From assembly GCA_964625145.1 (NCBI GenBank), contig CAZVAQ010000003.1, forward strand, positions 1 to 39,143: 39,143 nt of DNA, given 5' to 3'. The stretch is from an uncultured Candidatus Sumerlaeota bacterium (GTDB lineage: Bacteria; Sumerlaeota; Sumerlaeia; SLMS01; JAHLLQ01). Below the pieces are notes generated by a model. That model saw only the letters and a list, made by a program, of their open reading frames with translations. It ran no database searches and was not told where the DNA came from. Numbering within the stretch: the first letter of the stretch is position 1; each line of letters begins with the position of its first letter. Below, in pieces: positions 4,282 through 39,103 of this stretch. The position numbers and the translations under genes were made by a program.

Positions 4282-6936
4282 ATGCTTTGCATTCCTGAAA
4301 TTCGCGGATTTCACTTCTACGTCGACGGACGCAAGTGGCTCGTCCGCGGCGTCACCTATGGTCCCTTCCGTCCGCGCGAGGAAAATCCCGATCACTTTCC
4401 GGTGGATGCATGTCTGGAGCAGGACATGGCGGCCATCGCTGCAATGGGCGCCAATGCCGTGCGCATCTACACTCCCCCCAGCGACCGCGTTGCCAACGCC
4501 GCTGCGCGCCATGGTCTTCGCCTGCTGGTCGATGTCCCCTGGCCAAAACACCTCCATCTGTACGATGACGCGCGCCTGCGCCGCATGGCCTTTGACGCGC
4601 TCGACGAATCGCTGGAAGCCGCACGACGCATCCCGAACCTGATGGGCGTGCTCCTCGGCAACGAAATCCCCGCGGACCTCGTGCGTTGGGTTGGTGCGGG
4701 CAAGGTCGAGCGCTTCCTCCGCTCCATGGTTCGTCATGCGCGCACCGTCACCGGCGACATCCCGCTCGGCTTTGCGAACTATCCGTCGACGGAATACCTG
4801 GCGCTCGACTTCTTCGATTTCCTCGGCTTCAACATCTACCTCTCCGAGCGCGAGGACATGCGCAGCTACTTCGTGCGACTGCGCAACCTGTACCCGGAAA
4901 TGCCGCTGATCCTGACGGAGACGGGTGAGGACTCCATGGCGCAGGGCGAGGAGGAACAATGCCGCGTCGTCGCCAACTCGTTGACGGAAGCCTTCGACAC
5001 GGGCTTTGCCGGCGGGTTCGTATTCTCATGGACCGACGAGTGGCACACCGGTGGCTTCGACATCAACGATTGGGCATTCGGAATCGTTGACAAGAAGCGC
5101 CGCCCCAAGCCGCTGCACGGAGTCGTCAGTCGCGTGTATAGCGATGCGCTGCGCACGCGCTCCCTTTCGATTCCTGAAGACATCCTGGATCCCGCCGCAG
5201 AGGACAACGGCGCAGAACCAACAACGACCGCCGAAGACGACGCGCCCATGGTCTCCGTCGTCGTGTGCACCTACAACGGCGGCTCCACGCTACGCGATTG
5301 CCTCGATTCCCTGCAATGCCTGAACTATCCCAACTACGAGGTCATCGTGGTCAATGACGGATCGACGGACGACACGGCCGCGATCCTGCGCGATTATCCC
5401 GACGTGCGCGCCATTCATCAGGAGAACTTGGGCCTGTCTGTCGCACGCAACGTCGGCGTCCGAGCCGCTAGTGGAGAGATCATCGCCTTCACCGATTCGG
5501 ACTGCGTTGTGGACGAGGATTGGCTGCACCATCTGGCCATGGCGTTCGTGGGCCCCCTGTGCGCCGGTGTCGGCGGACCGAACCTGACACCATGGGAGGA
5601 GAATGCCATCCATCGCTGCGTGGCTCATGCGCCGGGTCATGCCACGCACATCCTCTTCGACGCCGAGCGCGCAGAACACGTCCCCGGCTGCAACATGGCA
5701 TTTCGCCGCTCCGCGCTGCTGCAGGCAAAGGCCTTCGATCCCGTTTTTCGCACGGCGGGGGACGACGTGGATCTCATCTGGCGCTTGCAGGAGGCCGGCT
5801 TCGAAGTGCGCTACGCTCCCGGTGCGTTCGTGTGGCATCATCGCCGCTCAACCATCGGCGCCTACCTGCGCCAGCAGGCCGGCTATGGCGCGGCGGAAGC
5901 TCTGCTGATCCGCAAACATCCTCATCGTTTCAACGACCGCGGCCAGTCCTTGTGGCGGGGTAGGATCTATTCCGGCCTCGATGACCGCGCTCTCTTTCAA
6001 CGGCCTGACATTCACTACGGCGTCTTCGCGTCCTCCGGCTACCAATGTATCTACACGCGTTCCGAGAGTTATCTGACGCAGTTTGTGACATCGCTGGAGT
6101 GGCTTGTATTCTGTCTGTTCCTCCTCGTGATGGGTTTCCTGTCCCAGGCGGCGCTTCTTGGCGGCCTGGCGGGAATTGGCGCGATGTTGCTGGTCAGCGG
6201 CCTAAAGGCGCGTCGCCGGTTCATGGCCGCCCGCGATCTGTCGCTCGTGCACTTCCCCGTCGTGTGGCTGCTGTGGTTCCTTCATCCATTGGTCCGGACC
6301 GGCGCGCGGTATCTTGCCGTTGTGCGCACGAAGTCACCCGACCGCATCTTCCGCGCGTTGCTGGATACCCCGACGCGGAACCGATTCGTGAAGCTCTCGA
6401 CCTCCGAGCTGCGCTTCTGGGGGCAGCAGGGCGAACCGCGCATCGGCGTGCTGCAAAGCCTCGTCGCCCGCATGCGCGAAGGCGGCTGGCTCTTCTGGCC
6501 CAGCAGCGGGTGGGAGCCGTGGGACCTGTCCGTCGGCATCAGTTGGTCTCATCGCCTGCTCCTGACCACGGCATCGGAGGATCATGGCGCCGGGCGCCAG
6601 CTCCTCATGGTTCGCATGGCCCTGCGAGCGACCAGCCTGTTCCGCCTGGCGCTGGTTGGGGTTCTTCTGGCGGCCGTGCTGATCGCCCTCCGCGATACTG
6701 TCCTTGCGCGTCTTGTCATCCTGGCGTTTGTGCTGTTCGCGTGGTGGCTGCACCGCCAGGCATTGGCGCGGCGCCGGGTGGTGGCCGAGTGGATCTGCCA
6801 ACAGGTTGCAACTTGTGGATATGTGCCCATGGGCGAAGTGAAGGACCCAGATCAAGTCCCTGAGGCCGGCGAGGCCGATTCCGAAATGGAGCGTGCGAGC
6901 AACACAACGCCCGTGGAGGAGCACGTCGCGCCATGA
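4282..6936 (+). CDS. Bifunctional clan GH-A-type glycoside hydrolase (TIM barrel) fused to GT2 glycosyltransferase with C-terminal TM helices
   Basis: N-terminal RGVTYGPF, MGANAVRIY, LGNEIP (acid/base), LTETG (nucleophile), VFSWTDEW. Central VSVVVCTYN, VVNDGSTD, FTDSD (DxD), GCNMAF, GDDVD, YLRQQ. Several hydrophobic segments follow. Confidence 0.9.
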   Translation: MLCIPEIRGFHFYVDGRKWLVRGVTYGPFRPREENPDHFPVDACLEQDMAAIAAMGANAVRIYTPPSDRVANAAARHGLRLLVDVPWPKHLHLYDDARLRRMAFDALDESLEAARRIPNLMGVLLGNEIPADLVRWVGAGKVERFLRSMVRHARTVTGDIPLGFANYPSTEYLALDFFDFLGFNIYLSEREDMRSYFVRLRNLYPEMPLILTETGEDSMAQGEEEQCRVVANSLTEAFDTGFAGGFVFSWTDEWHTGGFDINDWAFGIVDKKRRPKPLHGVVSRVYSDALRTRSLSIPEDILDPAAEDNGAEPTTTAEDDAPMVSVVVCTYNGGSTLRDCLDSLQCLNYPNYEVIVVNDGSTDDTAAILRDYPDVRAIHQENLGLSVARNVGVRAASGEIIAFTDSDCVVDEDWLHHLAMAFVGPLCAGVGGPNLTPWEENAIHRCVAHAPGHATHILFDAERAEHVPGCNMAFRRSALLQAKAFDPVFRTAGDDVDLIWRLQEAGFEVRYAPGAFVWHHRRSTIGAYLRQQAGYGAAEALLIRKHPHRFNDRGQSLWRGRIYSGLDDRALFQRPDIHYGVFASSGYQCIYTRSESYLTQFVTSLEWLVFCLFLLVMGFLSQAALLGGLAGIGAMLLVSGLKARRRFMAARDLSLVHFPVVWLLWFLHPLVRTGARYLAVVRTKSPDRIFRALLDTPTRNRFVKLSTSELRFWGQQGEPRIGVLQSLVARMREGGWLFWPSSGWEPWDLSVGISWSHRLLLTTASEDHGAGRQLLMVRMALRATSLFRLALVGVLLAAVLIALRDTVLARLVILAFVLFAWWLHRQALARRRVVAEWICQQVATCGYVPMGEVKDPDQVPEAGEADSEMERASNTTPVEEHVAP

Positions 6937-7490
6937 GCATCATTCGCCGATGCCTCCGCCCGGATGACGGGTTCACCTTGATCGAGCTGCTGATCGTGGT
7001 GATCGTGATCGCGATTCTTGCCTCGATTGCGGTTCCGAATTTTCTCAACGCCCAGACTCGCGCAAAAGTGTCCCGCGCGGAAGCCGACTTGCAAAGCATC
7101 AACCTGGCGTTGGAAGTGTATCGCGTGGACAGGAACAAGTACCCGCCGACACCAATGGAGAGCCTTTCCGACCGCGACCGCCGGCTCCGTTTCCTCACGA
7201 CACCGGTCGCCTACATTTCCAGCCTGCCGGCCGAAGTCTTTTGGCGCGATGAACAGGGGCCGACCTACGCCTACTGGAGCGCCAACCTGAATGATGCGAT
7301 GAAGTTTTCGCCGATCTACTTCTACCTGCCCGAGGAGCAGGAGCGAAAGGGGCGATGGGCTCTCTTCAGCCGCGGGCCCGACCGCGAATACGAGGCAGCA
7401 GTGGAGGAAGGGGGGAGTGGCCTGCTGATGTTCTACGATCCCTCCAATGGCACCGTGAGCAACGGTGACATCATGAAATTCGGCCCATGA
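6933..7490 (+). CDS. Prepilin-type N-methylation (GspG/pseudopilin-like) protein
   Basis: G|FTLIELLIVVIVIAILASIAVPNF class III signal, LTTPVAY, SRGPD, YDPSNGTVSNGDI. ATGA overlaps with both neighbours. Confidence 0.9.
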   Translation: MSIIRRCLRPDDGFTLIELLIVVIVIAILASIAVPNFLNAQTRAKVSRAEADLQSINLALEVYRVDRNKYPPTPMESLSDRDRRLRFLTTPVAYISSLPAEVFWRDEQGPTYAYWSANLNDAMKFSPIYFYLPEEQERKGRWALFSRGPDREYEAAVEEGGSGLLMFYDPSNGTVSNGDIMKFGP

Positions 7491-9292
7491 GCACCGCGCA
7501 GCGCCATCGGGGGACCGGGCGGCGGCACTTCCTTGCCCTGTTGCGGTACGCCCTGCCGTATCGCCGCGCTGTGGCCCTGCAATTGTCCCTCATGGCGATT
7601 TCCGTGGGCTTTGGACTTCTCAAGCCGTGGCCCTTGAAAGTGCTGATCGACAACGTCGCCGCCGATCAGCCTTTTGCCCTTGGCCGCTGGATACCGGAGT
7701 TTTCCTGGCAAGCACTGTTGCTGCTCGCTTGCGCGGCGCACCTGTTGTTTCACGCCGGCGAGGCGCTCATCCAAGTCATGTCCGGGTGGATTGCGACATC
7801 CACCTCATCCCGGATGATTCGCGACCTGCGCTCGGATCTGCTGCAGAAACTCCAGCAACTCTCCCTGCGATTCCACGACAGCAATCGTGTGGGCGATCTG
7901 GTGCATCGCGTCACGTGGAATTCCACCGCCGTTGAGACCGCCTTTCAGTCGGGCTTCATGGGCACAGTGAAGAGCATCATCATGCTGGTTGGCATGTTTG
8001 TCGTCATGATGATGATAAACGTCACGCTGACGATCATCGCTCTGGCCGTGGTTCCACTGCTTGTCATCCTGATCCGTGCCTACGCGAAGCGAACACACCG
8101 CGTGGCCCTGGAACACCAGACCCAGGAAGGGTCCGTTTCCTCAATGCTTCAGGAGATTCTCTCCGGCATCCGGCTGGTCAAGGCAAGCAATCAGGAAGGC
8201 AATGAGCACCAACGCTTTTCCAGCAATTGTGACCGCAGCGTCGGGACACGGCTCCGAAGCACGATGGTGCAGAACAGCTTCGGCTTCTTCACCGCGCTGA
8301 TCCTGGCCGCAGGAACGGCGCTCCTGTTTTGGGCTGGCATTCGCGAAGTGCGCGCCGGGCACCTGAGCATCGGCCAGTTCCTGGTCTTCGTGTCATATCT
8401 CGGGATGCTTTACTCGCCGCTGTCCGTCCTGAGCTACACGGCGTCCAGCGTCCAGAGCGCCCTCGGCGGCGCGTCGCGGTTGTTTGAGATACTTGAAACG
8501 CCGGAGGAAGTACCCGACCCGCCGGATCCACGGGAACTTGCAGCCTTCAACGACCGGATCGTCTATGACCAAGTCACATTTGCCTACACGGAAGGCCGCC
8601 CGGTTCTTCATGATGTTTCCTTCGAAGTGCAGCGCGGCGAGACCGTCGCCATCGTGGGTGAGACAGGGAGCGGCAAGAGCACCGTATTGGGCCTGGCCCT
8701 GCGATTCTACGATCCACAGGCGGGCTCCATCCGCATCGACGGTGTGGACCTGCGCGAAATGCGCGCGGCATCCGCAAGGAGCCTGATTGCTCTCGCCCCA
8801 CAGGACACTCTCCTCCTGTCCGGCACCATCGCCGACAACATTGCCTACGGCAGACCAAACGCAACGCGGCAGCAGATCGAACAGGCCGCAACCTTGGCGT
8901 GCGCCCACGACTTCATTCGCGAGTGCGAGCAGGGTTACGACACGGTTGTCGGCGAGCGCGGTGTGCGGCTCTCCATGGGACAACGCCAGCGCATCTCGCT
9001 GGCGCGGGTGTTTCTGCGCGACGCGCCAATCCTCCTGCTCGACGAGCCCACGTCGGCCATCGATGCGGAGACCGAAGCGCTCATCGTGGGGCAACTCTCA
9101 AACATGCGCGACAAGGCGATCGTCATTGTCGCGCACAGGCTTTCGACCATTCGCTTTGCTGACCGGATCATTGTCATGGGTGATGGGCGGGTCCTGGAGG
9201 CAGGGACTCACGAGAACTTGCTGCAGCGGCGCGGTGCCTACCATCGCCTTTGGTCCGCACAGGTCTCGGGCTATGAGGAGGCGTCGGTCTGA
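7487..9292 (+). CDS. ABC exporter, fused permease plus ATPase (MsbA/NdvA-like type IV)
   Basis: TM domain, Walker A GETGSGKS, signature LSMGQRQR, Walker B ILLLDE, AHRLST. Confidence 0.95.
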   Translation: MSTAQRHRGTGRRHFLALLRYALPYRRAVALQLSLMAISVGFGLLKPWPLKVLIDNVAADQPFALGRWIPEFSWQALLLLACAAHLLFHAGEALIQVMSGWIATSTSSRMIRDLRSDLLQKLQQLSLRFHDSNRVGDLVHRVTWNSTAVETAFQSGFMGTVKSIIMLVGMFVVMMMINVTLTIIALAVVPLLVILIRAYAKRTHRVALEHQTQEGSVSSMLQEILSGIRLVKASNQEGNEHQRFSSNCDRSVGTRLRSTMVQNSFGFFTALILAAGTALLFWAGIREVRAGHLSIGQFLVFVSYLGMLYSPLSVLSYTASSVQSALGGASRLFEILETPEEVPDPPDPRELAAFNDRIVYDQVTFAYTEGRPVLHDVSFEVQRGETVAIVGETGSGKSTVLGLALRFYDPQAGSIRIDGVDLREMRAASARSLIALAPQDTLLLSGTIADNIAYGRPNATRQQIEQAATLACAHDFIRECEQGYDTVVGERGVRLSMGQRQRISLARVFLRDAPILLLDEPTSAIDAETEALIVGQLSNMRDKAIVIVAHRLSTIRFADRIIVMGDGRVLEAGTHENLLQRRGAYHRLWSAQVSGYEEASV

Positions 9293-10330
9293 ATGGGACT
9301 GCGCATTGCGGAAATTTCCACCTTGTCGCGCCCCGTTCCTCCAGTGGGGGAGGGTTCCGTGGAGAGTCTTGTGTCCTCCATCACCGAGGGGCTTGTCGCC
9401 CGCGGTCATGAAGTCACCCTGTTTGCCACGGCGGATTCCCAAACATCGGCAACGCTCTGCAGCCCGGTCCCCAGGAGCTACGTCGATGACCCGGCCAAAT
9501 GGGATTGGCAACTCTATGAAGCCTGGCAAGTGTGCGAGGCGTTTCGCCGCCACGCCGATTTCGACATCATCCACTGCCACTCCTATCATCATGCACTGCT
9601 ATTCTGTGATCTTGTTCCAATACCCGTCTTGATGTCGATGCACCTCGAACCGGGTCCTGATTATGTATTCCTGGCGGAGCGGTCGCGAAACCGGCACCTG
9701 CACTTTTGCTCGAGGTACCAAGCCCGTTCCTTCGCCCACATTTCCGGAAAGAGCATCATTCTCCACGGTGTGCCTGTGGCGGGCGCCCTTGCGGCGGCCA
9801 GCGAGCCACGCGGCCATGATCTCCTGTTTCTCGGCCGGTTTTCTTCCGAGAAGGGTGTGCTGGATGCCATTCGCATCGCGCGTCGGTTGGGCAGCAGGCT
9901 GCTGCTCGCCGCTCCTCCGAATGACTATTATCACGCCAATGTGGAGAAGGAAGTGGACGGAGACCAGGTCGTCTACGTCGGAGAGGTCCACGGCGTGGAG
10001 AAGTTCCGTCTCTTGTCCCGGGCCCGCGCGTTGCTCTATCCCGTGAATCGTGGCGAACCATTCGGTCTGGTTCTCATAGAGGCGCTCTTGTCAGGCACTC
10101 CTGTCCTGGCCCATCCTCTCGGAGCGGTGCCGGAAGTTGTCACTCACGGCGAAAATGGATGGCTGTCAGAGTCGGATGAAGGATTTGAGGCTGGTTTGTC
10201 CTTTGCCCAGGAAGCCGACAACGAGGCCATACGCGCCGCGGCCATGTCGCGTTATTCGGATGCGCGCATGGTTGACGAGATCGAGACTTTGCTGCTGCAA
10301 TTGGCCGGAAGAGGTGGCGATCATGCCTGA
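9293..10330 (+). CDS. Glycosyltransferase family 4
   Basis: PVPPVGEGSVE, GLVARGHEVTLFA, FLGRFSSEKG, EPFGLVLIEALLSGTPV (ExFG..xxEA). Confidence 0.93.
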   Translation: MGLRIAEISTLSRPVPPVGEGSVESLVSSITEGLVARGHEVTLFATADSQTSATLCSPVPRSYVDDPAKWDWQLYEAWQVCEAFRRHADFDIIHCHSYHHALLFCDLVPIPVLMSMHLEPGPDYVFLAERSRNRHLHFCSRYQARSFAHISGKSIILHGVPVAGALAAASEPRGHDLLFLGRFSSEKGVLDAIRIARRLGSRLLLAAPPNDYYHANVEKEVDGDQVVYVGEVHGVEKFRLLSRARALLYPVNRGEPFGLVLIEALLSGTPVLAHPLGAVPEVVTHGENGWLSESDEGFEAGLSFAQEADNEAIRAAAMSRYSDARMVDEIETLLLQLAGRGGDHA

Positions 10331-11312
10331 GTCCACAGCCAGGAAAGCACGCTACGTCGGGTATACAAAGGGAACGGAGAATCATGGCGACGAGGCCCTG
10401 ATCTGGATTATCCGGGATCTCTTGTCGCCGGAGATTGATGTCGTCACCGAACCTGGCCCGACAGACATCGCCCTTCTGGGCGGCGGCACGCTGATCAACC
10501 AATCACCCTGGTTGATTGATGCCTTCTCGGATGAACTGTCGCGATGCGGTCGGGGAATTGTCTTTGGCACCGGAGTTGGCAGCACCATCTTTTGGGGCAA
10601 TCATTTCGCACAATGGAACCGGCTGCTGGATAAGTGCGCGCACGTGGGCGTGCGCGGACCGCACTCATTGCGCCTCCTGACGTCCAACGGTTTCAGGGGT
10701 GCCCAACCCATCGGCGATCCCTACCTCGCCCTCCATCCACCGATGGAGTATCGCCCGTGCACTCGTCGCATTGGGATCAACGTGGGAACCACGAACGATT
10801 CTCTCCATGGCGGCAACGAAGCCGATTTCCTGCGCCGAGTGGGGGAGCTCGCCGCTTTGCTCCGTATGCGCGGATGGTCGATCTTCTGGGTGTCGGTGTG
10901 GTCACGGGATCTCGAAGTCATTCGCCAGATCCGACAGTCTGGCGGGGCGAATGACGAACCCCTGTACGACGCGCGCAGCATGACCCTTGAGACGCTCAGC
11001 GCCATTGCCCGTTGCGAAGTGTTTCTCGGCGAGAAGCTCCATGCCTTGGCCATGAGCGCCGTAGTCGGCACCCCCTTCATCGCGTGGGAATATCAGCCCA
11101 AGGTCAGGGACTTTGCGGCCTCCATCGGGATGGAGGAACTCGTCCTGTCCACCAAGACCCGGTCCCCCACCGAGGTACTCGCAAATATCGAATCTCTCGC
11201 CCGCGGTCACCAGGTCGTTGCCTCCCAGTTGAGACGGGAAGTTACTGTCCGCCGGGAAGCCATCCATGCCTTTGCCACCCGCGTCAGACGCTGGGCCAGG
11301 GAGGGAGACTGA
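10323..11312 (+). CDS. Polysaccharide pyruvyl transferase family protein
   Basis: NHGDEA, LGGGTLI, GTGVG, VGVRGPHS, DP, KLHA..M..VVGTP, YQPKV motifs. ATG at 10323 overlaps the GT4 end and has GAGGTG upstream. Confidence 0.85.
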   Translation: MPESTARKARYVGYTKGTENHGDEALIWIIRDLLSPEIDVVTEPGPTDIALLGGGTLINQSPWLIDAFSDELSRCGRGIVFGTGVGSTIFWGNHFAQWNRLLDKCAHVGVRGPHSLRLLTSNGFRGAQPIGDPYLALHPPMEYRPCTRRIGINVGTTNDSLHGGNEADFLRRVGELAALLRMRGWSIFWVSVWSRDLEVIRQIRQSGGANDEPLYDARSMTLETLSAIARCEVFLGEKLHALAMSAVVGTPFIAWEYQPKVRDFAASIGMEELVLSTKTRSPTEVLANIESLARGHQVVASQLRREVTVRREAIHAFATRVRRWAREGD

Positions 11313-11317
11313 CGGCG

Positions 11318-12478
11318 ATGCGCATTGTCCTGGCAGGGATCATCGGTCGTTACCCATGGGGCGGAGTCACCTGGTGCAGCCTCATGTACCTGCTTGGGCT
11401 GCGCAAGCTCGGCCACGAAGTGTGGTATTTGGAGGACACGTGCGAATGCAACTTCGACCCGGAGCTGAACGCGATCTCCACCGACCCGGGCTATGCGTTG
11501 CGTTACATCGATACCAACCTGCGGCCGTTCGGATTTGGCGACCGCTGGTGCTATGTGGACTACACCGGCCGCCATCACGGGATCGATGAAGCGCGCATGC
11601 GCGAAATCTGCAACTCGGCGGATCTGTTTCTCGTACTCTCGGGGGGATGCTGGGTGTGGCGCGACCACTATCGTGCCATACCCCGGAAGGCATTCATCGA
11701 CAGCGATCCTGCCTTCACGCAACTGGCCATCGAAAACGCCCGCGTCGAATCGGATCGCGAGGGAAAGAAGTCATGGTATGTTGATTTCTTCGAGGAGTAC
11801 GACACGCTGTTTACCTTCGGCGCAGGGATTGCCAATGGGTTCTCGTCTGTTCAATCGCATTTGAAGTGGCATCACACGTGGCAACCCATCGACACCAGTC
11901 TTTGGAACCCGGCCGCGTTGCCCCTCCCGCCGCGCAGGAGATTCACAACCATCATGACATGGGCCGTGGAGAGTTTCGAAGACATTGGCGGAAACAAGGA
12001 CCATGAGTTCCTGAAGATTATCGATCTGCCTTCACGATTGGGACCGGATCGCGCCGCGGCAATTGAGCTGGCCGTCACCCGCCCGCCAACGCTGCTGCGC
12101 CAAAAGGGCTGGAATTGCCAGGACGCCCTGCCGATCTCCAGAGACTTGTGGCGCTATCACGCCTACATTGCCTCCAGCGCGGCCGAGTTCAGCGTGGCCA
12201 AGGAGACATATGTTCATACCCGATCAGGATGGTTCAGCGACCGAAGCGAATGTTATCTCGCCGCGGGGCGTCCAGTTGTGTTGCAGGATACCGGCTTCTC
12301 GAATGTGCTGCCGGGGGGGGAGGGGATTGTCGCGTGGAACACCGCCGATGAAGCCATCGCGGCATTGGACGAGGTGGAGTCGCGCTACGCTCTCCACGCG
12401 CGCCGCGCCCGCGAGCTCGCGATGATCTACTTCCGGGACACGGTGGTGCTGCAGAAGCTGCTGGATCGCGTGTCGTGA
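11318..12478 (+). CDS. GT-B-fold glycosyltransferase-like protein
   Basis: MRIVLAG..RYPWGGVTW..YLLGLRKLGHEVWYLED, DSDPAFTQ, SGWFSDRSECYLAAGRPVVLQDTGFS. GGAG RBS upstream. Confidence 0.75.
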   Translation: MRIVLAGIIGRYPWGGVTWCSLMYLLGLRKLGHEVWYLEDTCECNFDPELNAISTDPGYALRYIDTNLRPFGFGDRWCYVDYTGRHHGIDEARMREICNSADLFLVLSGGCWVWRDHYRAIPRKAFIDSDPAFTQLAIENARVESDREGKKSWYVDFFEEYDTLFTFGAGIANGFSSVQSHLKWHHTWQPIDTSLWNPAALPLPPRRRFTTIMTWAVESFEDIGGNKDHEFLKIIDLPSRLGPDRAAAIELAVTRPPTLLRQKGWNCQDALPISRDLWRYHAYIASSAAEFSVAKETYVHTRSGWFSDRSECYLAAGRPVVLQDTGFSNVLPGGEGIVAWNTADEAIAALDEVESRYALHARRARELAMIYFRDTVVLQKLLDRVS

Positions 12479-12520
12479 TTCTTGCCGCGCGGCGCTGAGA
12501 CGCGCCAATCGTGCCTGCAT

Positions 12521-20368: not shown

Positions 20369-20406
20369 TGCGTTCGTCCTTTCGTTGTCGTGCGGGCGGG
20401 GGGTGA

Positions 20407-21045
20407 TCAGTTGAAGCGGGGAACATCCCCGAGACTGATGGTTCCGTTGCTGGGGTCGTATGCTCCGGTGATTGGCCACAGGTTGATCGGCTTGCCCATG
20501 TTGCGGGCGGATGACTCGCGGTCGGGCCCAAAGGAGGACAGCACCCAGTTCAGCGAAACTCCCTCGCGCCGGATTGCTTGTCCTTCGTTGAACACATCGG
20601 TTGAACTGGCGGGCGGCCAGTAATTGATCCACAGCAGATAGCCAAATGTTCCCGGCAGGTTGGCGTTGAAGGGCTTTTGCTCCTGAAAGACATCGCGCGT
20701 CGCCTCGATGCTCGACAGGTAGGCAACCGGCGACGTCAGCGGCACGAAGGTTTCCATCGTGGAGTATTCCCAACGCTGCCCCGCGGGAACACCCGCCAGG
20801 TTGCGCTCAATCCAATCCATCGGGTATTTGTTGTAATCCACATGGTAGGACTCAATCGCCGTGGCGACGGTGCGCATGTCGGCGGCCATCCGCGTGACCT
20901 TGGAGCGCACCTGCGCCTCCAGGAAGTTGGGGACGGCAATGGCGGCCAGGATCGCGATGATGGCCACGACGATTAGCAGTTCGATCAGGGTGAAGGCCGA
21001 GAGACGACGCTGTTGCACAATACGAGCGGGGGAAGATGGAAGCAT
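20407..21045 (-). CDS. Prepilin-type N-methylation (GspG/pseudopilin-like) protein
   Basis: A|FTLIELLIVVAIIAILAAIAVPNFLEAQVRSKV, LTSPVAY, SFGPD, YDPSNGTISLGDV. The start is placed at the nearest ATG (21045). Confidence 0.9.
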   Translation of the reverse strand: MLPSSPARIVQQRRLSAFTLIELLIVVAIIAILAAIAVPNFLEAQVRSKVTRMAADMRTVATAIESYHVDYNKYPMDWIERNLAGVPAGQRWEYSTMETFVPLTSPVAYLSSIEATRDVFQEQKPFNANLPGTFGYLLWINYWPPASSTDVFNEGQAIRREGVSLNWVLSSFGPDRESSARNMGKPINLWPITGAYDPSNGTISLGDVPRFN

Positions 21046-31686: not shown

Positions 31687-33915
31687 TCACCACAGGCCGA
31701 ACATGTCAATTGTCGCTGCGGGCGCGGGCGCCGGGATGACCTTCACGGCGATGTCGCGCTCGAAATCGGGGACAGGCACTCGCAGTTCGCCGTCGGCACT
31801 GTGGGCGGTGGTGGCGTGGACGATGCCTGCGCTTGTCCACGTGTCGTGGAATTCCACGCGGTAATCGCCGTCGATCATGTTGCGAAAGACCATCTCCGTG
31901 CCGCGCAGGACGCCGCCATGCTCCAGCCCCCAATCGCTCTGCATGTCGTACAACCATGCATATGCATGGCTGGGTCCAATCATCCCGATGGCGCGGACGA
32001 TGTTGCTCACGGCGCCATCGAACTCGTATGACCGGATCCGCACCCAATCCTGGCCCGTGTTTACAATTTGAACAGTGTGACTTCCGGAGGCAAGTGGCAC
32101 TGTGATGACAAGGTTCGTCGCGCCATTCTGCAGGTCCTGGTTGCGAACCGTCGTGCCATCAACCTTGACCTGAATCCGGTTGGTGCCGGCGCTTGAGACG
32201 GTCATGACATTGATGCGCAGCACCGATCCCTCCGCCAATGTCAGCGTGAACGACGGGTCGGAACGCAGTGCGGACTGGTAGCTGCCGTGCAGCCATTGTG
32301 ACAAGCTGTCGATGCCGGGAAACATGCCGTCATCGTTGATGACGAATGCCTTCTGCGGCGAAGGAGCCCAAAAATCGACGATGCCCGGATGTGCCTCCAC
32401 CGTTCGCGGTTGCCCAATCTGCACGACCTCGGGATTGCGAAACTGTAGTGACTTGCCGGCAAGGGTCTCACCTTCCAGGTAGGCCGCGAGCGGCGCGAAC
32501 TGGGCATCGTGGCCGTATTGCTCGATGTATTCCCACCACCAGTACATCGCGCCCGACCCCAGCATGGCGGCGGTCCAGATGCCGTTGTGCAGGACCAAGC
32601 CGTCGACCAATTGCTGGTCATAGGGGGCACCGAGCGACCCGATTCTTCCCTCCGGCGTGCCGCCCGGTGCGCCGAACTCCGCGAACAGGACCGGCTTGCC
32701 GTAAGTCCCCAGCGTCGAGCGAAGCCTCTCGTACTGCCGGATCTTGTCGTCGCCATACTCGTGATTCTGCACGATCTCCATGGAGGGAAGCGACCAGATC
32801 GGATGAAAACCAGAGTGCTCTGAACTGGTGCTAACCAGGTGCCCGAAGGGATCGTTGGCCTTCAGCCATTCGCCCATCTCGTGATGCCACGCGGCAACAT
32901 TCGCGCGCTGCTCGGCGCTCTCGCGAAAGCCCTCGGTAAACTGGACCTCGTTGAACAGCTCCCAGCAAAGGACACTCGTCGAATACCCCCATCGCGCGAT
33001 GATGTAGCGAAGCCGGCGCTTTGTCAGCTCCTTCGCCTGCTCGTTGGTGAAGAACTCCTGCGGATTGTTCAGGAAGCCGCCATCGTCCGCGCGCGCGGCG
33101 TTGTAGGGGTTCTCCGACCAGTTGGGATTCACGGTCGTTGTGAACTGCCCATGATAGTGCAGCGCGATCATCAGCGCGATGTCGCGTTCCTCCGCCATCT
33201 CCACGATGCGGTCGATCCTTGCCGCAAGGGGAAGACTGTACCGCCCCAGGCCCTGATAGTAGCCCGTGTGGTGCGACGAACTCCATTCCAGCGATTGGCC
33301 CCGGTAGAAGTGCGTCATCCAGATCCGCGCGAAGTTCTCCCCGGAACCGGCCATCGCATCCATCCATCGCCGGTAATCGTTCGTTCCCGCGGCCGTCGCC
33401 CAGGCGATGTTGCGCCCGATGGGGTGATACGGCGAACCGTCGTCATGGGCCAGGAAGCGTCCATCGCGCGGATCAACGCCGACGTAGCCCGGCTTGTCAC
33501 TGTATCCGGCCAGAAATGATCCCGCGTGTTCCAGGGTCGACGTGCCGTTCAGGTCCGTCACGACCAGGTCGAAGAAATGGTGACCGGTCTGGCGCGGCGC
33601 GAACCGCACTTTCCACGATGGGTTGCTACCGTTGGTGATGTACTCCGTCGCCGTGCCGCTAAAGCTAAAGTCCATGCTCCAGAAGGCGGGCACTGTGACG
33701 GTTCTGCCATCCGGCTGCAAGATGACCGCGCGCGCATCGACTTCGTGATAGTCAAACGGGTTGTCGTATTGTTCGGAAAGTTGGAAGGAAACCTCGACCT
33801 TCTCGTACTGGCCCACCAGCCACGGTGACACTTTCACGCTGGAGACGTTCGTTGCCGGGAGCAAGCCTGCCGATGCGCACAGACCGGCAACAAGCGCGAT
33901 ACGGGAGAGAGGCAC
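31687..33915 (-). CDS. Secreted DUF5060 + clan GH-A (GH5-like) glycoside hydrolase with inserted beta-sandwich
   Basis: GTG start at 33915 with AAGG upstream and a signal peptide. YEKVEV..YDNPFD, WKVRFAP, GENFARIWM, RYIIARWGYS, WELFNEV, FAEFG, MYWWW. Tail PAPAPAATIDMFGLW. Confidence 0.85.
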   Translation of the reverse strand: MPLSRIALVAGLCASAGLLPATNVSSVKVSPWLVGQYEKVEVSFQLSEQYDNPFDYHEVDARAVILQPDGRTVTVPAFWSMDFSFSGTATEYITNGSNPSWKVRFAPRQTGHHFFDLVVTDLNGTSTLEHAGSFLAGYSDKPGYVGVDPRDGRFLAHDDGSPYHPIGRNIAWATAAGTNDYRRWMDAMAGSGENFARIWMTHFYRGQSLEWSSSHHTGYYQGLGRYSLPLAARIDRIVEMAEERDIALMIALHYHGQFTTTVNPNWSENPYNAARADDGGFLNNPQEFFTNEQAKELTKRRLRYIIARWGYSTSVLCWELFNEVQFTEGFRESAEQRANVAAWHHEMGEWLKANDPFGHLVSTSSEHSGFHPIWSLPSMEIVQNHEYGDDKIRQYERLRSTLGTYGKPVLFAEFGAPGGTPEGRIGSLGAPYDQQLVDGLVLHNGIWTAAMLGSGAMYWWWEYIEQYGHDAQFAPLAAYLEGETLAGKSLQFRNPEVVQIGQPRTVEAHPGIVDFWAPSPQKAFVINDDGMFPGIDSLSQWLHGSYQSALRSDPSFTLTLAEGSVLRINVMTVSSAGTNRIQVKVDGTTVRNQDLQNGATNLVITVPLASGSHTVQIVNTGQDWVRIRSYEFDGAVSNIVRAIGMIGPSHAYAWLYDMQSDWGLEHGGVLRGTEMVFRNMIDGDYRVEFHDTWTSAGIVHATTAHSADGELRVPVPDFERDIAVKVIPAPAPAATIDMFGLW

Positions 33916-33978
33916 TACCTTGTCCTTCCATGCCTTGCTGGCAGCGGGGTGTTGCACAAAGCTTCTGCATCGGGCCCT

Positions 33979-34037
33979 GAAAAAGACAAGCAGAGGAACG
34001 GCGTCGGGGTTGTACTCCCCTCGGGCCGTCCCTCTGC
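33979..34037 (-). terminator. Rho-independent terminator-like hairpin between the CBM-like gene and the downstream hydrolase
   Basis: Minus strand GCAGAGGGACGGC...GCCGTTCCTCTGC long stem followed by TTGTCTTTTTC. Confidence 0.7.
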
Positions 34038-34057
34038 CAGTCACCCCCTCGCCAGGA

Positions 34058-35263
34058 TCAGTAAATGGCGAAGCCATCCCCAGAGGCGGGTTGCGGTGGC
34101 GTGCTTTCCGCCACGGCTCGAATCTCATCCACGTACACGTGGTTGATCTCGCCCTGCGCCGTCGCGCTGGTTATGATGCCATTGCGCATGAGATGGGACG
34201 AGTTGAAAGTTTCGAGCGCATCATGATCCAAGGCGAAGACCAGGGTTTGGAAACCGGCATTGGCCTGCAGCGTCTGGGAATCATGGGTATGGTAAGTGTA
34301 GTATGCCGAATCGGAAATGAACCCGAACTCGTCCGGGACTGCTGACTGCGTGAAGTAGGCGACGTCCAGGGGGGTGCCGCTTTCGTTCTCCAGCATCATG
34401 TCGACTTCGATGAAGTTGTAGTTGCTGATGTCCGTCGGGCGTCCATCAAAGCCCGGCAAGAAGCCATTCTGCCAAGACCAGGCCGGACCGTAGGGCCCGT
34501 TCGCGCCCTCAGCGTATTGCTGTTGGTAGTACAATACCCCATCGGTATCCGGGTAATCGATGCGCTCAAAGCCGGTATGGTTCTGCCCCGAGTTTCCAAC
34601 GATCGCATTGCCGTTGAAGTTCATGAAGATCCCGTGGAAGCCTCCATCCGACGCCGTCGGAGTGAAGTCGCAATAGACGCGTGAAGTGAGCGGTGTCCCC
34701 ACCGAGCGCACTTCATCGATGTAGTATTGCAGCGGTCCCCCCGCATAACCGCCCGGGAAGGCTCGAATGCTCACTCCCCACCCCTTGATATGCGCGACCT
34801 GGGGCGGCGTCAGCGACGCCAGGTTGAAAGTGATCGTCTTGGCGGGCTCACCGGCCGTCAATGTCACGTCCGACATGCCAACAAAGGTGTAGGCGTTCGT
34901 GGCCTGAACAAAGAACTGGAGGTTGTGGGTTGGCAGGTCACCCTCGTAGCGGATGTCCATCTCGATGGCGGACAAACCGGTAAGATCAACGCCACCTGCC
35001 GACGGCTGGAACACTGCCCCCGTGTTGTTGTAGCTGTCAGTGATCGATCCGGCACCATTGATGGTGAAGGTCAACTCCGTGGTTTCTGTGTTCTCATTGA
35101 AGTGTGTCGTGATATTCGAGATCGTGCCCGAGCCTGTGCGCCAGGACTCGGTCGAGCCGTCCTCGAAATTGTTCAGCACATGGGGGCTTTGGGCAGTGAC
35201 CTGGGTGGAGAGTCCGCAAAGCAATGTCATCGCGAGTGCCGCTGCCAGCTTGTTGACTGCCAT
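34058..35263 (-). CDS. Secreted non-catalytic protein with two CBM-like beta-sandwich domains
   Basis: Signal peptide MAVNKLAAALAMTLLCGLSTQVTA/Q. NNFEDGSTESW, DLTGLSAIEMDI...YYIDEVR, then DISNYNFIEVDM...VYVDEIR. Tail PPQPASGDGFAIY. Confidence 0.75.
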   Translation of the reverse strand: MAVNKLAAALAMTLLCGLSTQVTAQSPHVLNNFEDGSTESWRTGSGTISNITTHFNENTETTELTFTINGAGSITDSYNNTGAVFQPSAGGVDLTGLSAIEMDIRYEGDLPTHNLQFFVQATNAYTFVGMSDVTLTAGEPAKTITFNLASLTPPQVAHIKGWGVSIRAFPGGYAGGPLQYYIDEVRSVGTPLTSRVYCDFTPTASDGGFHGIFMNFNGNAIVGNSGQNHTGFERIDYPDTDGVLYYQQQYAEGANGPYGPAWSWQNGFLPGFDGRPTDISNYNFIEVDMMLENESGTPLDVAYFTQSAVPDEFGFISDSAYYTYHTHDSQTLQANAGFQTLVFALDHDALETFNSSHLMRNGIITSATAQGEINHVYVDEIRAVAESTPPQPASGDGFAIY

Positions 35264-35390
35264 GGGTGCATACCGTCCTGTCTTGGGATGGTGGAGCCCA
35301 TGAAAGGGGCTCCGGGGGGGTCTCATTGCCGCTCGCATCTACTGTCCTCGCCTGCCGTTTGGGGAGGTTCCTCTGGTGGCCGGCAGGGTC

Positions 35391-35622: not shown

Positions 35623-38436
35623 TCAGTCCTCCCGGATCTTGACGCCCACGTCCGTGCGAAACTCCGGCATTCCGACCGGAGCCCCGGTCACCGGCATGCG
35701 GCCGATGATGCTCCCGGTTGCCGTGTCCCAGAACTCAGCCACCTGATGCCGCGGCCCGATCAGCCCGTCGGGAAGTTCCGCATCCCGGATGGGGGGAAAG
35801 CCATCCAGTGTCGGCTCCGGGTCCATGGCGATGAAGCTGACCGTGGTCGCATCGGTCCGGCGAATCCACGCCAGCGTCCGGTCGTGCAGGTGCAGCGCGG
35901 AGGCCTCCAGGGAGACGCCCCCCGGCGTCTCAAACACAATCCGCGAGACCGTGCCAGGCCCGGTGTCCAATTGCTCGCCCGCCACAAAGGCGGCGATGCC
36001 CCGGTAGCGATGCCACAATCGGCGCGGCGCGATGTAGCCGTCCCACCACCAGCTCATCGCGCCGCCCGCCGCGCCGTTGGTCAGCGATGCCCAGTTGGTC
36101 GCGTGCAGGTTCCACCCCGACGCATCAACGCCGGTGGGAAGCTGTGCCACGCCGATTTCGCCCATGAACACCGGCTTGCCGTATCGCTCGTGCACGCGCG
36201 ACACGGTCCACCGGATCCTCGGCGGCCAATTGCCAACCTCATACGCATGGGGCTGCACAAAATGAATGTCCGCGGGCCCGTACACGCGGTCATCGTCGAT
36301 GGAGCTGATCGTGAACAGATGATTGTTCGGATCATGCGCGCGGACGGTGGCGGTCATTTCCTGCAGCCATGGCTCCAGGTTATCGCCGATCAGCCCGTCC
36401 GTCCACTCGATCTCGTTGAACCATTCCCACGCCATGATGTTCGGGCTGTGGGAGTAGCGGGCCATCAGGTACCGCAGGCGCCGCTTGAACAACTCGCGCG
36501 CAGTCTCATCAGTCAGGAACTCCGACGGATGCGACAGCGGTCCGCCGTTTGCCGCATTGTACGGATTGGAGTGCCACTCCGAGTTGACGCCGAGGCTCAA
36601 CTGCCCGTGGTTGATCAGGCACAACTGCACCTTGATCCCCAGCTCCTCGCACCGCCGCAGGATATGATCGAGCCTCCACAGGGCCGGCTGGCGCTCGTCG
36701 TACTGCCCCAATCCCGTGTCAGACCATTCCGGGCTGAAGCTGATGGAGAACATCCACACGCGGATGAAGTTCCCGCCATTGGCGGCCAGGGCCTCCAGCC
36801 ACTCGTCGTACGCCAGCGTCTGCCGGTTGCCGTCGCCATGATCCGCATACCAGCACAGGTTGAGCCCAATGGGAAAGTATGTGCTGCCATCGTCGTGGGC
36901 AAAGTAATGGCGGTTCCGCCCGCTGACCCGCACAAAGCCCGGATGAGTTGACTCCTCGACATGAAACTTCTGCTCGCTCGTCGCCGTGCCGTTCCGGTCG
37001 GTCACTGTCACGCGCGTGCGCCATTCTCCCGCTTCCGTCGGTGTGAATCGCACGAGCCATTGCGGGGCCTTTGCCGCGATCAGTTGCTCCTGCCCCTCGA
37101 TCACTTGACGTTCGAAGTCCCAATGATAAAAGCCCGGCACGCGCGCGATGGTTCCCGACGGAGCGACAAATTCCGCGTCGATCGCGATATCATCCGGGTC
37201 ATACGGATTGCCCCAAGTCGCGCTCAGGTCGACACGCGCCTCCAGCATCTCCATGCGCGGCACGGTGCTGTCACTCAACACGAGCCCGTTGATCGTTGGC
37301 GCGCCGTTGTGCACGGTGTTGCGGTGCGATGCAGGATCAAAGCCGATGACTGGGCTGACAGCCCGCCGCCCGCCGCCAACTCGCGTCAAGCCGGGCTCGG
37401 CCGCCGCATCCTCCCGAATCGCCAACTCATAGATGGAAAAGCCGTAAACGGTTGACCGCGTCTTCAAATCCAGTCGCACAGCCGTGGCTGTCAGCGCCTC
37501 AAACGTCACGACCTCCACGCCACCGCGACCGTCATCGATCATTGCGGCCGTGATCCAATCTCCCCCTGGTGTGCGCGCAAGGACATCGTAGGCCGCAGCC
37601 GAGGCCGTCTCCCAATGGATCGCCACCTGGTTGATGCGCTGTGGCGAACCAAACTCCACTTCCAGCCATTGGTTGTCGCCAGTCTCGGATGCCCATCGCG
37701 TGTCGTGGGACTCGTCGTTGACCGCGCTGGCCGGGGTCGATGCGCCTTCGATGCTGGAGGCGCGCACCGTCGCGTCCCACGCCACATTGCCCGGAGCGCG
37801 GAACAGTTCGTTCAATGCCGGCGGCAACCGGCGGGCTGTGGGGGAGGGCTCGATGCTTTCCTCTTCACCGCGCGCCACGCGACGCAGGTTGTCGAACTTC
37901 ACCATTGTATCAGAGTCGTGCCCCGTGAAGGACAACGACAGGCGCATCACGCCGCGTAGCCGCTCGCGCGGATACGCATCCAACTCCAGTGCCACGTCGC
38001 GGTGCTGGCCCGGCGTGACGATCACATTGCGACCGGTCATGTATTCCAAATTCGCGTCGTGCAGGTCCAACCGCAGGATCAAGGTTTTGTCCGTCGCGAC
38101 ATCCACGAGTAGCCGCGCATCTCCGGACAGATCCAACCCAACCGGCCCCGTCGGCAGGGACACCTGCGCCTTTCCATGGGCACGGTCCGGATGCAGCAGC
38201 ACGCGCATGGACCGCGTGCCCTGCGTCGCGAAGTCCTCTGATGTCTCCACGCCATGGACGTCGGTTTCCCATGGGCTTCCATCGCCGTGCCATTCCCAGC
38301 GCAGTCGACCTTCAAAGTCATCGATCAGATCCACGTCCTGCGCGGCGCAGGAAGCCGCCAATGTGCAGGCGATCAGGACGTAGCCGAAGGTTTGCGACAT
38401 CCGGCACATGCGGGCGTGAGGGCGTGTGAAAGCCAT
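35623..38436 (-). CDS. Secreted modular hydrolase: CBM-like + F5/8C (CBM32-like) + DUF5060 + clan GH-A catalytic domain
   Basis: Signal peptide, LIDDFEG..W, TRWASETGDNQWLEVEFG...WE...SIYEL (discoidin), NPYDPDDI, WLVRFTP, GGNFIRVW, WEWFNEIE, MGEIG, MSWWW. The start may be a slightly downstream ATG. Confidence 0.85.
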   Translation of the reverse strand: MAFTRPHARMCRMSQTFGYVLIACTLAASCAAQDVDLIDDFEGRLRWEWHGDGSPWETDVHGVETSEDFATQGTRSMRVLLHPDRAHGKAQVSLPTGPVGLDLSGDARLLVDVATDKTLILRLDLHDANLEYMTGRNVIVTPGQHRDVALELDAYPRERLRGVMRLSLSFTGHDSDTMVKFDNLRRVARGEEESIEPSPTARRLPPALNELFRAPGNVAWDATVRASSIEGASTPASAVNDESHDTRWASETGDNQWLEVEFGSPQRINQVAIHWETASAAAYDVLARTPGGDWITAAMIDDGRGGVEVVTFEALTATAVRLDLKTRSTVYGFSIYELAIREDAAAEPGLTRVGGGRRAVSPVIGFDPASHRNTVHNGAPTINGLVLSDSTVPRMEMLEARVDLSATWGNPYDPDDIAIDAEFVAPSGTIARVPGFYHWDFERQVIEGQEQLIAAKAPQWLVRFTPTEAGEWRTRVTVTDRNGTATSEQKFHVEESTHPGFVRVSGRNRHYFAHDDGSTYFPIGLNLCWYADHGDGNRQTLAYDEWLEALAANGGNFIRVWMFSISFSPEWSDTGLGQYDERQPALWRLDHILRRCEELGIKVQLCLINHGQLSLGVNSEWHSNPYNAANGGPLSHPSEFLTDETARELFKRRLRYLMARYSHSPNIMAWEWFNEIEWTDGLIGDNLEPWLQEMTATVRAHDPNNHLFTISSIDDDRVYGPADIHFVQPHAYEVGNWPPRIRWTVSRVHERYGKPVFMGEIGVAQLPTGVDASGWNLHATNWASLTNGAAGGAMSWWWDGYIAPRRLWHRYRGIAAFVAGEQLDTGPGTVSRIVFETPGGVSLEASALHLHDRTLAWIRRTDATTVSFIAMDPEPTLDGFPPIRDAELPDGLIGPRHQVAEFWDTATGSIIGRMPVTGAPVGMPEFRTDVGVKIRED

Positions 38437-38440
38437 GGAC

Positions 38441-39103
38441 TCAGCGTTCGATCACTGTTCCGCCGGCGGCGAACTTGCCGATGTCGCCAAGGCTGATCGT
38501 GCCGTTTGTCGCATCGTACTGGTTCCCATAGCCACCATAGGAGGTGACCATGAAACCGTTCACGCGATCAGGTCCCATCGACCAAAGGACGTAGCCCATC
38601 TTGGTGTCCAGAACCTGGGGGGCGTGTTCGGCGCTCGGCAGCAGGTAATGATCGTAGAATCGCGAGCGAACGTACTGACCTTCCTGGTGCGCGGCTTCGT
38701 AGAAGTAATGCTGCTGGGCGGCGTAGAACGAACCGCCCGCCGTTTGCGTGCCGCCGACGGCGAAGGGATCCTTCAGCAGGCCGACCGTCAGATAACTCAC
38801 CGGCGAAGTCAGTTGCCACGGCAGCCCAAAGAAATTCCATCCCGTACCCGGATCATGATAACGCCCGCGGTTGTTGCCTTCGGGAGTGTAGATGTTGAAC
38901 GGCACGGCGTTGTTATCCACCGCATATCCGGCAATGCCCAGGTTTAGCGTGCGGATGTCAGCGTACACGCGCGAGACCTTGGACCGCGTCTGCGCTTCCA
39001 GAAAGTTCGGAACCGCAATGGCAGCCAGAATGGCGATGATCGCCACCACGATGAGCAGTTCAATCAGGGTGAAAGCTCGGAACATCTTCCGTGAAGTCTT
39101 CAT
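38441..39103 (-). CDS. Prepilin-type N-methylation (GspG/pseudopilin-like) protein
   Basis: A|FTLIELLIVVAIIAILAAIAVPNFLEAQTRSKVSR, LTSPVSY, SMGPD, YDATNGTISLGDI. Confidence 0.9.
   Translation of the reverse strand: MKTSRKMFRAFTLIELLIVVAIIAILAAIAVPNFLEAQTRSKVSRVYADIRTLNLGIAGYAVDNNAVPFNIYTPEGNNRGRYHDPGTGWNFFGLPWQLTSPVSYLTVGLLKDPFAVGGTQTAGGSFYAAQQHYFYEAAHQEGQYVRSRFYDHYLLPSAEHAPQVLDTKMGYVLWSMGPDRVNGFMVTSYGGYGNQYDATNGTISLGDIGKFAAGGTVIER

Follow-up and report, generated by a model that had tools for sequence, protein, structure and literature searches.

Several described systems expand prepilin-type proteins into large families or place them beside glycan genes. GspG (PulG/EpsG/XcpT) itself is encoded by one gene in the gsp operon of type II secretion systems (T2SS). 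In Planctomycetes, a heavily expanded family couples the N_methyl prepilin signal to an SBP_bac_10 head, and the available part of PMC8567305 describes at least 41 such genes per genome, spread over the genome and often flanked by genes for signal-peptide proteins. In the cyanobacterial hps locus, glycosyltransferases occur together with four pseudopilins (HpsB-D and HpsH) which, according to the accessible part of PMC12475490, were proposed to push polysaccharide through a secretin. In the Sulfolobus bindosome, sugar use has its own proteins with a pilin signal, which require the type IV pilus-like Bas system for assembly (available part of PMC3047682). The polysaccharide utilization loci (PULs) of Bacteroidota unite a regulator, binding proteins, glycoside hydrolases (GHs) and a transporter in one locus. 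As far as the available parts of the sources go, both expanded prepilin families (Planctomycetes, PMC8567305) and pilins near glycan systems (Caldicellulosiruptor, Myxococcus) are thus already known. Here we analysed the first 39,143 bases (the window) of contig C3 of a metagenome-assembled genome (MAG) from the phylum Sumerlaeota (BRC1), which hold three paralogous GspG-like prepilin genes, pilin1, pilin2 and pilin3, each in a different glycan locus.

We found that the three genes belong to a GspG-type family that is expanded throughout the phylum, and that their neighbours are kept in orthologous loci of other species. Our reading, which we hold with moderate confidence, is that each paralogue is inherited with one extracytoplasmic glycan module and that its variable head may adapt a shared pilus or pseudopilus to that module. 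The module is an exopolysaccharide synthase/ATP-binding cassette (ABC) exporter operon for pilin1, a protein with tandem carbohydrate-binding modules (CBMs) in a ROK/ABC/GH94 glucan-use locus for pilin2, and a secreted GH5 protein for pilin3.

The source MAG comprises 3.84 Mb in 329 contigs (contig N50 19.9 kb, 62% G+C) and is 91.5% complete with 1.9% contamination. The 26 open reading frames (ORFs) of the window were searched against Pfam; gene calls, start sites and signal-peptide calls came from crude heuristics of our own, and neighbours were classified by hand from their Pfam matches. The pilin ORFs lie where a first-pass annotation of the sequence had placed them, with pilin1 (6933-7490, 185 amino acids) on the forward strand and pilin2 (20407-21045, 212 amino acids) and pilin3 (38441-39103, 220 amino acids) on the reverse strand, and share 42-49% pairwise identity in a three-way alignment. 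Their resemblance is not due to chance, since a hidden Markov model built from these three sequences alone retrieved 35 genes at E<1e-20 from the gene calls of the MAG. With a profile of 34 paralogues we obtained 45 six-frame matches at E<=1e-10, which gives 35-45 copies in this genome, and the same profile gave 18 to at least 77 matches per genome in all 41 genomes of the phylum that were sampled for family counts. The expanded family that the first-pass annotation had suspected from three copies is therefore real. Close homologues carry the source names Candidatus Sumerlaeota, Sumerlaeia or BRC1. The copy number in the MAG is a lower bound, because the 5' ends of 7 of the 35 members, pilin3 among them, lie less than 400 nt from a contig end or gap. 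For pilin3 this is a 13-N scaffold gap directly 5' of the gene (C3:39144-39156), where the window ends (39103-39143). We also considered whether pilin 5' ends systematically break assemblies and rejected this, as no more than those 7 of 35 are so placed.

Sequence blocks singled out in the first-pass annotation, namely the N-terminal helix, LT(S/T)PV.Y, S.GPD and YD(P/A)(S/T)NGT.S.GD, proved invariant or nearly so both in the three-way alignment and among the 34 paralogues, with gapped, variable segments between them. Over the first 40 mature residues, identity between paralogues is 83%, compared with a mean column identity of 25% over the whole alignment. Only 51% of the codons are shared at identical residues, and the first 120 nt are 75% identical. 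Gene conversion as the source of the identical N-termini was rejected on the basis of these codons and of the rarity of exact runs of at least 31 nt (5 of 528 pairs). Differing codons under a near-identical helix instead point to selection on the protein, and the codon comparison shows the N-terminal helix to be under purifying selection, which would fit subunits that share one machine.

In each window pilin, the motif F-T-L-I-E-L-L with Glu at +5 stands in a sequence that has a short basic leader, Gly or Ala at -1, Phe at +1 and about 20 hydrophobic residues, the features of a class III signal peptide. Pfam N_methyl matched all three above its cut-off (E 1.2e-7, for pilin1, to 2.8e-7), as well as 32 of the 34 family members. 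The likeness to GspG comprises the Phe+1/Glu+5 prepilin signal, the hydrophobic N-terminal helix, a head whose start matches T2SSG and TIGR01710, and EpsG and PulG as the best folds. TIGR01710, the GspG equivalog model, matched 34 of 34 members at E<=0.01, with 61.6 (pilin1), 46.7 and 41.3 bits for the window pilins against a cut-off of 88.85 and over profile positions 1-62 of 134 only. Pfam T2SSG (PF08334) matched 20 of 34 members at the same threshold; pilin1 scored 27.3 bits (E 3.9e-6, cut-off 21) over only profile positions 2-48 of 108, and pilin2 and pilin3 gave no match at E<=0.01. An AlphaFold2 (AF2) model of pilin2 built with 122 homologues (predicted local distance difference test score, pLDDT, 87.8; predicted template modelling score 0.79) was compared with 48,161 chains in an all-against-all structural search. 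The top match was EpsG (4lw9_A, Z 7.0, root-mean-square deviation 2.5 Å, 95 residues), followed by PulG (5wda_A, Z 6.7, 114 residues) and other pilins. A Foldseek search of the model against the PDB gave nothing at E<=0.001, the best match being the type IVb pilin 9iuf at 0.026, and a PDB profile search with the 34-paralogue alignment matched the helix region only (Geobacter PilA-N, 1.6e-21; M. xanthus PilA; PulG, 3.3e-12). The mature parts of the three window pilins contain no cysteine pair, and hence no disulfide-bonded D-region, which makes them distinct from classical type IVa pilins.

The heads are best read as a predicted GspG-like core with family-specific blocks and hypervariable inserts. 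The conserved Asp/Gly-rich C-terminal block lies at what we take to be the position of the GspG calcium-binding loop. Compared with GspG, the Sumerlaeota heads are 50-100 residues longer and carry the blocks LTTPVAY and YDPSNGTxSxGD along with the inserts, and 35-45 scattered copies contrast with a single gene in a gsp operon, the other members of which (GspE, GspF, GspD and minor pseudopilins) are missing from the window. The first-pass annotation had likened the genes to planctomycete DUF1559 prepilins expanded near sugar genes. Beyond the expansion, the scatter over the genome and the signal-peptide neighbours, this likeness fails. SBP_bac_10 (PF07596, DUF1559) matched 0 of 34 members and 0 of 3 window pilins at E<=0.01, the H-X9-DG model TIGR04294 likewise matched 0 of 34, and the phylum is a different one. 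In the available part of PMC8567305, moreover, the planctomycete genes are described as evenly spread, not as near sugar genes, and orthologue-level synteny is unreported.

To what extent each copy keeps its neighbours was assessed by searching for each window pilin in 75 genomes of the phylum; 40-45 candidates per genome were scored, so orthologue counts are minimum values. pilin1 lies between the gene for an 884-amino-acid synthase-like protein of glycosyltransferase family 2 (GT2; 4282-6936, forward strand; Glycos_transf_2 1.9e-33) and that for a 601-amino-acid ABC exporter with a transmembrane domain and an ATPase (7487-9292, forward strand; ABC_membrane 1.5e-39, ABC_tran 4.6e-31). It overlaps both by 4 nt, as the GT2 gene ends at 6936, pilin1 runs from 6933 to 7490 and the exporter gene starts at 7487, so the translational coupling of one pilin within a glycan-biosynthesis operon, suspected earlier, is seen at both junctions. 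A GT4 gene (Glycos_transf_1 4e-17), a polysaccharide pyruvyl transferase gene (PS_pyruv_trans 3.7e-19) and a further ORF make up the rest of this biosynthesis string (9293-12478, forward strand). Orthologues of pilin1 with 65-74% identity were found in at least seven genomes of six families, and the order GT2-pilin1-ABC exporter was present in 7 of 7. Two further matches, at 50% identity, lack this order and are read as paralogues. The GT2 protein also has a weak match to GH72 (glucanosyltransferase) over its first 255 residues (Glyco_hydro_72 1.4e-6), an uncommon fusion for a bacterial synthase.

A pseudopilin gene between a GT2 synthase and an ABC exporter parallels the pseudopilins among glycosyltransferase genes of the hps locus, a parallel that applies to pilin1 only. 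The two differ in that one pilin is present here and not four, an ABC exporter belongs to the operon, and neither a secretin nor a minor pseudopilin is found in the window; the HpsB equivalog NF038303 matched 2 of 34 members, at E 0.0067 and 16.4 bits against a cut-off of 150, so the family does not qualify as HpsB.

The second locus is built around pilin2, the first gene of a string on the reverse strand that is divergent from a ROK regulator gene. After a gap of 38 nt, in which the RBS-like (ribosome-binding-site-like) GAAAGGA precedes the ATG of the next gene and no terminator-like site was seen, pilin2 is followed by the gene for a 946-amino-acid secreted protein (17528-20368, reverse strand) with a signal peptide, about five self-similar segments and the C-terminal tail ...GDWIYIE. 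Next comes a 480-amino-acid secreted protein (15984-17426, reverse strand) with the tail ...GSWLSVH and one homologous CBM-like domain, 41% identical to residues 563-755 of the larger protein. On the other side (21289-31587, forward strand), Pfam identified the ROK regulator, a 671-amino-acid protein, an ABC solute-binding protein, two permeases, a 320-amino-acid secreted protein and a GH94-superfamily phosphorylase-like protein. The last repeat of the 946-amino-acid protein was modelled by AF2 as a beta-sandwich resembling CBM11 (pLDDT 75.6, last 12 residues disordered), and Foldseek matched it to the CBM of a Bacillus mannanase (1wky, 1.4e-8) and to CBM11 of C. thermocellum (CtCBM11, 1v0a, 3.6e-8). 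We base the CBM assignment on this fold search because the Pfam CBM_11 match is below cut-off (E 2e-4, 21.9 against 27 bits).

At least five genomes carry a pilin2 orthologue (60-89% identity). The locus is the same in 5 of 5, and the order of its genes in 4 of 5. The four colinear loci consist of the pilin, CBM-repeat and 480-amino-acid protein genes and, divergently, those for ROK, the 671-amino-acid-type protein, the solute-binding protein, the permeases, the secreted protein and GH94. The fifth locus belongs to a genome of another family; its pilin is still divergent from ROK and adjoins GH94, and the CBM proteins have moved behind ROK. A direct search of 40 sampled genomes with the 946-amino-acid protein gave no orthologue; those described here were found later through the pilins, outside that sample. 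In three loci (L064-L066) its orthologues are only about 370-400 amino acids long, with about two repeats as opposed to about five here, and in another (L063) the orthologue seems interrupted between query residues 821 and 815.

The first-pass annotation had gone on to suggest a PUL-like system with pilins in place of SusC/D, and this part is not borne out as a mode of uptake. None of the 26 window ORFs matches a Pfam family of the SusC/TonB-dependent receptor or SusD-like kind, and import in the locus falls to an ABC system of the usual type that has a solute-binding protein (SBP_bac_1) of its own. The loci thus differ from Bacteroidota PULs in importing by an ABC system and in having a pilin as their common element. 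That pilin2 adjoins a sugar importer also brings to mind bindosome-like receptors, in which the class III signal would serve for processing and anchoring only and the heads, outside any filament, would hand oligosaccharides to ABC importers. Sugar-binding proteins of Sulfolobus with class III signal peptides do need a type IV pilus-like assembly system, according to the available part of PMC3047682. However, those archaeal proteins are full-size solute-binding proteins, whereas the heads described here are small and GspG-like, without the corresponding folds and without a match to any solute-binding-protein family. The pilin2 importer is already served by its SBP_bac_1 protein, there is no importer beside pilin1 or pilin3, and the near-invariant polymerisation helix favours filament assembly. 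We therefore consider a receptor role of this kind improbable.

The third locus has pilin3 directly upstream of a gene for a secreted protein of 925-937 amino acids (35623-38436, reverse strand) with a signal peptide and F5/8 type C, DUF5060 and GH5 domains (F5_F8_type_C 2.9e-14, DUF5060 6.7e-10, Cellulase 1.7e-7). The gap between them is 4-40 nt, and no terminator-like site was seen in it. Further along the same strand (31687-35338) follow a secreted protein of 401-426 amino acids ending in ...GFAIY and a secreted DUF5060-GH5 protein ending in ...MFGLW, both tails being from a relaxed list. At least three genomes have a pilin3 orthologue (56-88% identity), and in 3 of 3 the GH5 orthologue directly follows it. 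Searched directly against the 40 sampled genomes, the 925-amino-acid protein gave partial GH5-domain matches only; its orthologues, too, came later through the pilins and from outside the sample.

Over the three loci, the neighbours are kept in 15 of 15 orthologous loci of other species (7 + 5 + 3), which bears out the earlier claim of locus-specific copies. The placement of two pilins directly upstream of secreted CBM or GH proteins likewise stands, for pilin2 (the 946-amino-acid protein with its CBM11-like fold) and pilin3 (the F5/8C-DUF5060-GH5 protein). Each paralogue is probably co-transcribed with its glycan module.

We then extended the comparison to the whole MAG. A large secreted protein is encoded directly downstream of 6 of 26 pilins, compared with 91 of 2814 other genes (odds ratio 9, p 1.8e-4), where downstream means on the same strand and within 200 nt, secretion and size follow a crude signal-peptide and size rule, and only pilins with a non-pilin downstream gene are counted. 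Two further obvious downstream secreted proteins were missed by this rule. Directly upstream, such a protein was found for 1 of 25 pilins. One family member precedes a glucoamylase-like PF10091 gene and a GH1 gene. We take PF10091 to be beta-1,2-glucanase-like, DUF2961 to be GH172 and NAGLU to be GH89.

Several secreted neighbours of the pilins have a short tail of the form D/S-W-hydrophobic-x-hydrophobic-x-COOH after a Pro/Thr-rich linker. Secreted proteins with such a tail, 279 to 2622 amino acids long, lie at 14-20 kb and 31-35 kb of the window and elsewhere in the MAG (C1:27700-35568, C21:29563-31080, C24:20808-21647, C53:14315-15823, C63:14316-17195 and C100:3383-5251). A strict tail pattern, defined post hoc after seeing the data, was found in 8 proteins of the MAG, 6 of them within three genes of a pilin, a position shared by 128 of the 2824 genes as a whole (p 2e-7). 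With a looser motif based on other genomes, 11 proteins were found, 5 of them near pilins (p 6.6e-5). Tail-bearing secreted proteins thus cluster beside pilins in this genome, which supports the first-pass annotation where it links pilins with C-terminal tails. Among orthologues of the 946-amino-acid protein, 4 of 5 retain the tail, and in three genomes of the same family or order (G013, G029 and G021) loose DW-type endings occur in 4 of 98 proteins near pilins as opposed to 0 of 41 far from them. Having neither a transmembrane segment nor a basic cluster, the tail is unlike PEP-CTERM-type signals, and its last residue is usually not aromatic, unlike the beta-signal of outer-membrane proteins. 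Separately, large secreted proteins near pilins were found with type I dockerin ends (E 1e-5 to 8e-8; C77:13224-15734, C29:12323-16693, C20:13151-17329 and C8:24195-27179).

Assembly machinery is absent from the window, as the first-pass annotation had noted: T2SSE, T2SSF, Secretin and Peptidase_A24 have no match among the 26 ORFs. It is located elsewhere in the MAG, which holds five full-length GspE/PilB-type ATPases, nine shorter T2SSE matches, five secretins and the prepilin peptidase (Peptidase_A24) at two loci, and one family member adjoins two PilT-like ATPases; otherwise this machinery and the family members are on separate contigs. Outside the pilin family, seven genes with divergent prepilin-type N-termini and mature proteins of 147-330 amino acids (C9:8854-17917) look like a minor-pilin cluster. 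A 1095-amino-acid protein (C2:16242-19529) beside a Penicillinase_R repressor gene joins a BlaR1-type M56 peptidase (1e-33) to a T2SSG pseudopilin-like domain (9.4e-13); a membrane protease of signal transduction that carries a pilin-head domain is unusual.

Several results weigh against a general coupling of these pilins to glycan modules. In a test of Pfam matches at E<=1e-6 within two genes on either side, classified by hand for 31 pilin loci and 40 random loci and with pilin3 taken without its two upstream genes, which lie beyond the window, the excess near pilins is modest. Degradative carbohydrate-active enzymes (CAZymes), CBMs or dockerins were found at 9 of 31 pilin loci and 6 of 40 random loci (p 0.13), at 11 of 31 and 7 of 40 once sugar ABC systems and regulators are added (p 0.07), and at 14 of 31 and 9 of 40 with glycosyltransferases and nucleotide-sugar enzymes as well (p 0.039). 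About half of the copies border housekeeping genes such as those for EF-G, NusB, ATP synthase epsilon and RibBA, and genes for an ABC1 kinase or a phosphonate transporter likewise take the place of a glycan neighbour. The glycan link is thus a tendency of part of the family and not a rule, and of the expected enrichment near CAZymes and sugar genes there remains a two- to three-fold excess that is statistically weak (p 0.04-0.13). The pattern is also weaker in other genomes, for which the best-scoring family copies only were used. Among 25 pilins of G013, G029 and G021, 3 of 19 have a large secreted protein encoded downstream and 1 of 22 have one upstream, and in G005, a complete genome of another family, one of nine pilins is followed by a 498-amino-acid secreted protein ending in ...ADWQLF. 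The strict tail pattern is absent from both samples (0 of 37 proteins near pilins and 0 of 125 distant ones in G005; 0 of 98 and 0 of 41, respectively, in the other three genomes). The five GspE/PilB-type ATPases are all encoded on contigs that have no family member, contigs being short (N50 19.9 kb). For the GspG-type assignment, the TIGR01710 scores are under the curated cut-off and concern the N-terminal 60 or so residues only, and the Z scores of 6.7-7.0 for EpsG and PulG, under 8, are middling. On the side of coupling, compost and manure metatranscriptome assemblies contain parts of the region, with one RNA-library contig of 505 nt (X1) across the junction of pilin2 and the 946-amino-acid protein (20283-20787) and one of 288 nt (X3) across that of pilin3 and GH5 (38235-38522), but these contigs may stem from DNA carry-over and carry neither strand nor level; nor can their depth rank expression or an uncovered stretch prove anything.

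These points could be accommodated if there were no functional coupling at all, the family being a stock of redundant, alternative major pilins that serve twitching, adhesion or variation of the surface and whose neighbours reflect only the general clustering of envelope genes in a CAZyme-rich genome. Such a pool would be in keeping with the copies, about half, that have no glycan-related neighbour, with enrichment at p 0.04-0.13, and with G005, where a secreted protein with a tail-like end adjoins 1 of 9 pilins. It would also agree with the main Sumerlaeota paper, the available part of which mentions only type IV pilus twitching, in one passage (PMC8092238); the available part of a second paper on the phylum has no pilin terms (PMC10866078). 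However, envelope-gene clustering does not account for partners that stay together in 15 of 15 orthologous loci, which come from several families of the class and in one case retain the pilin despite a rearrangement, for the downstream/upstream asymmetry (6 of 26 against 1 of 25), for the association of tails with pilins, or for the 4-nt overlaps of pilin1 with both neighbours. On balance we regard the absence of any coupling as distinctly unlikely. The first-pass annotation as a whole is borne out in part: the expanded, locus-specific family stands, whereas the enrichment near CAZymes is weak.

How coupled pilins might work can be outlined from the parts of the protein. In view of the invariant helix, the prepilin signal and the GspG-like core, the most economical reading is assembly by shared machines into a T2SS pseudopilus or a type IV-like filament: the proteins would be cut by prepilin peptidase, and the common helix would feed them into shared T2SS or type IV filament machines. 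A module-specific function of the head is likely because the pairing with particular secreted CBM/GH proteins or with an export operon is conserved, the pilin gene comes first and the tail travels with it. This function may be cargo recognition for export, fibre anchoring, glycan binding or action as a polymer piston. The variable head would then adapt the pilus or pseudopilus to the co-expressed module, for instance as an aid to the export or display of the CBM/GH proteins encoded with it, perhaps via their C-terminal DW tail; in the pilin1 operon it might alternatively help to extrude the polymer in a piston-like manner, similar to the proposal for the hps pseudopilins (PMC12475490).

In a more specific version, which is possible but on the unlikely side, Sumerlaeota would base the capture and breakdown of extracellular glycans on pili in place of SusC/D, and the pilin of each locus would be an adaptor whose variable head docks the DW tails or dockerins of the CBM/GH proteins on a shared pilus or T2SS pseudopilus. 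It is with the same reserve that we would see in this a modular, pilus-borne counterpart of the cellulosome or the PUL, in which a sister module would serve to extrude exopolysaccharide made by the cell itself. When the head of pilin2 (residues 44-212) was co-folded with the final CBM-like repeat of the 946-amino-acid protein and its tail, the score was 0.00 in both runs, which for a single pair speaks neither way.

Docking would be superfluous if the heads themselves bound the polysaccharide of their locus and tethered the cell or a retractile pilus to it, as adhesive pili that require no interaction with neighbouring proteins. Hypervariable inserts on a fixed scaffold, linkage of paralogues to loci for different glycans and the family member beside two PilT-like ATPases would suit such a role, and there are precedents in the available parts of two sources: C. 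bescii regulates the expression of its pili when it encounters xylan (bioRxiv 10.1101/614800), and in M. xanthus the interplay of pili with exopolysaccharide is mediated by Trp146 of PilA (PMC12691611). Yet adhesion leaves unexplained why a pilin sits inside a biosynthesis/export operon and why tail-bearing proteins cluster beside pilins. The co-encoded proteins already have CBM-like domains, and no carbohydrate-binding family is among the Pfam matches of the heads. Adhesive pili therefore seem to us a doubtful explanation, and we retain the broader reading of heads that adapt a shared filament to inherited modules.

At the left end of the window, a gene for a DUF1016/YhcG PDDEXK nuclease (587-1648) is unrelated to the glycan loci.

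Our literature searches, which did not cover supplements that may list pilin genes, found no description of this pilin family, of its orthologue-level locus linkage or of the tail. The conserved locus linkage suggests a so far unstudied link of pilus-type machines with glycan use.

To our knowledge, it has not been shown for diderms outside Bacteroidota how the secretion and surface display of glycan-degrading proteins are organised, and we know of no established mechanism by which the T2SS recognises its cargo. The family described here gives a testable candidate for cargo-specific or substrate-specific pseudopilins, and the C-terminal DW tail that travels with the pilins could be a new docking or sorting signal. 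It also provides a handle on the biology of an uncultured phylum that dwells in compost and sediment. If the coupling is true, pilin genes would be usable as markers for glycan loci in phyla without SusC/D.

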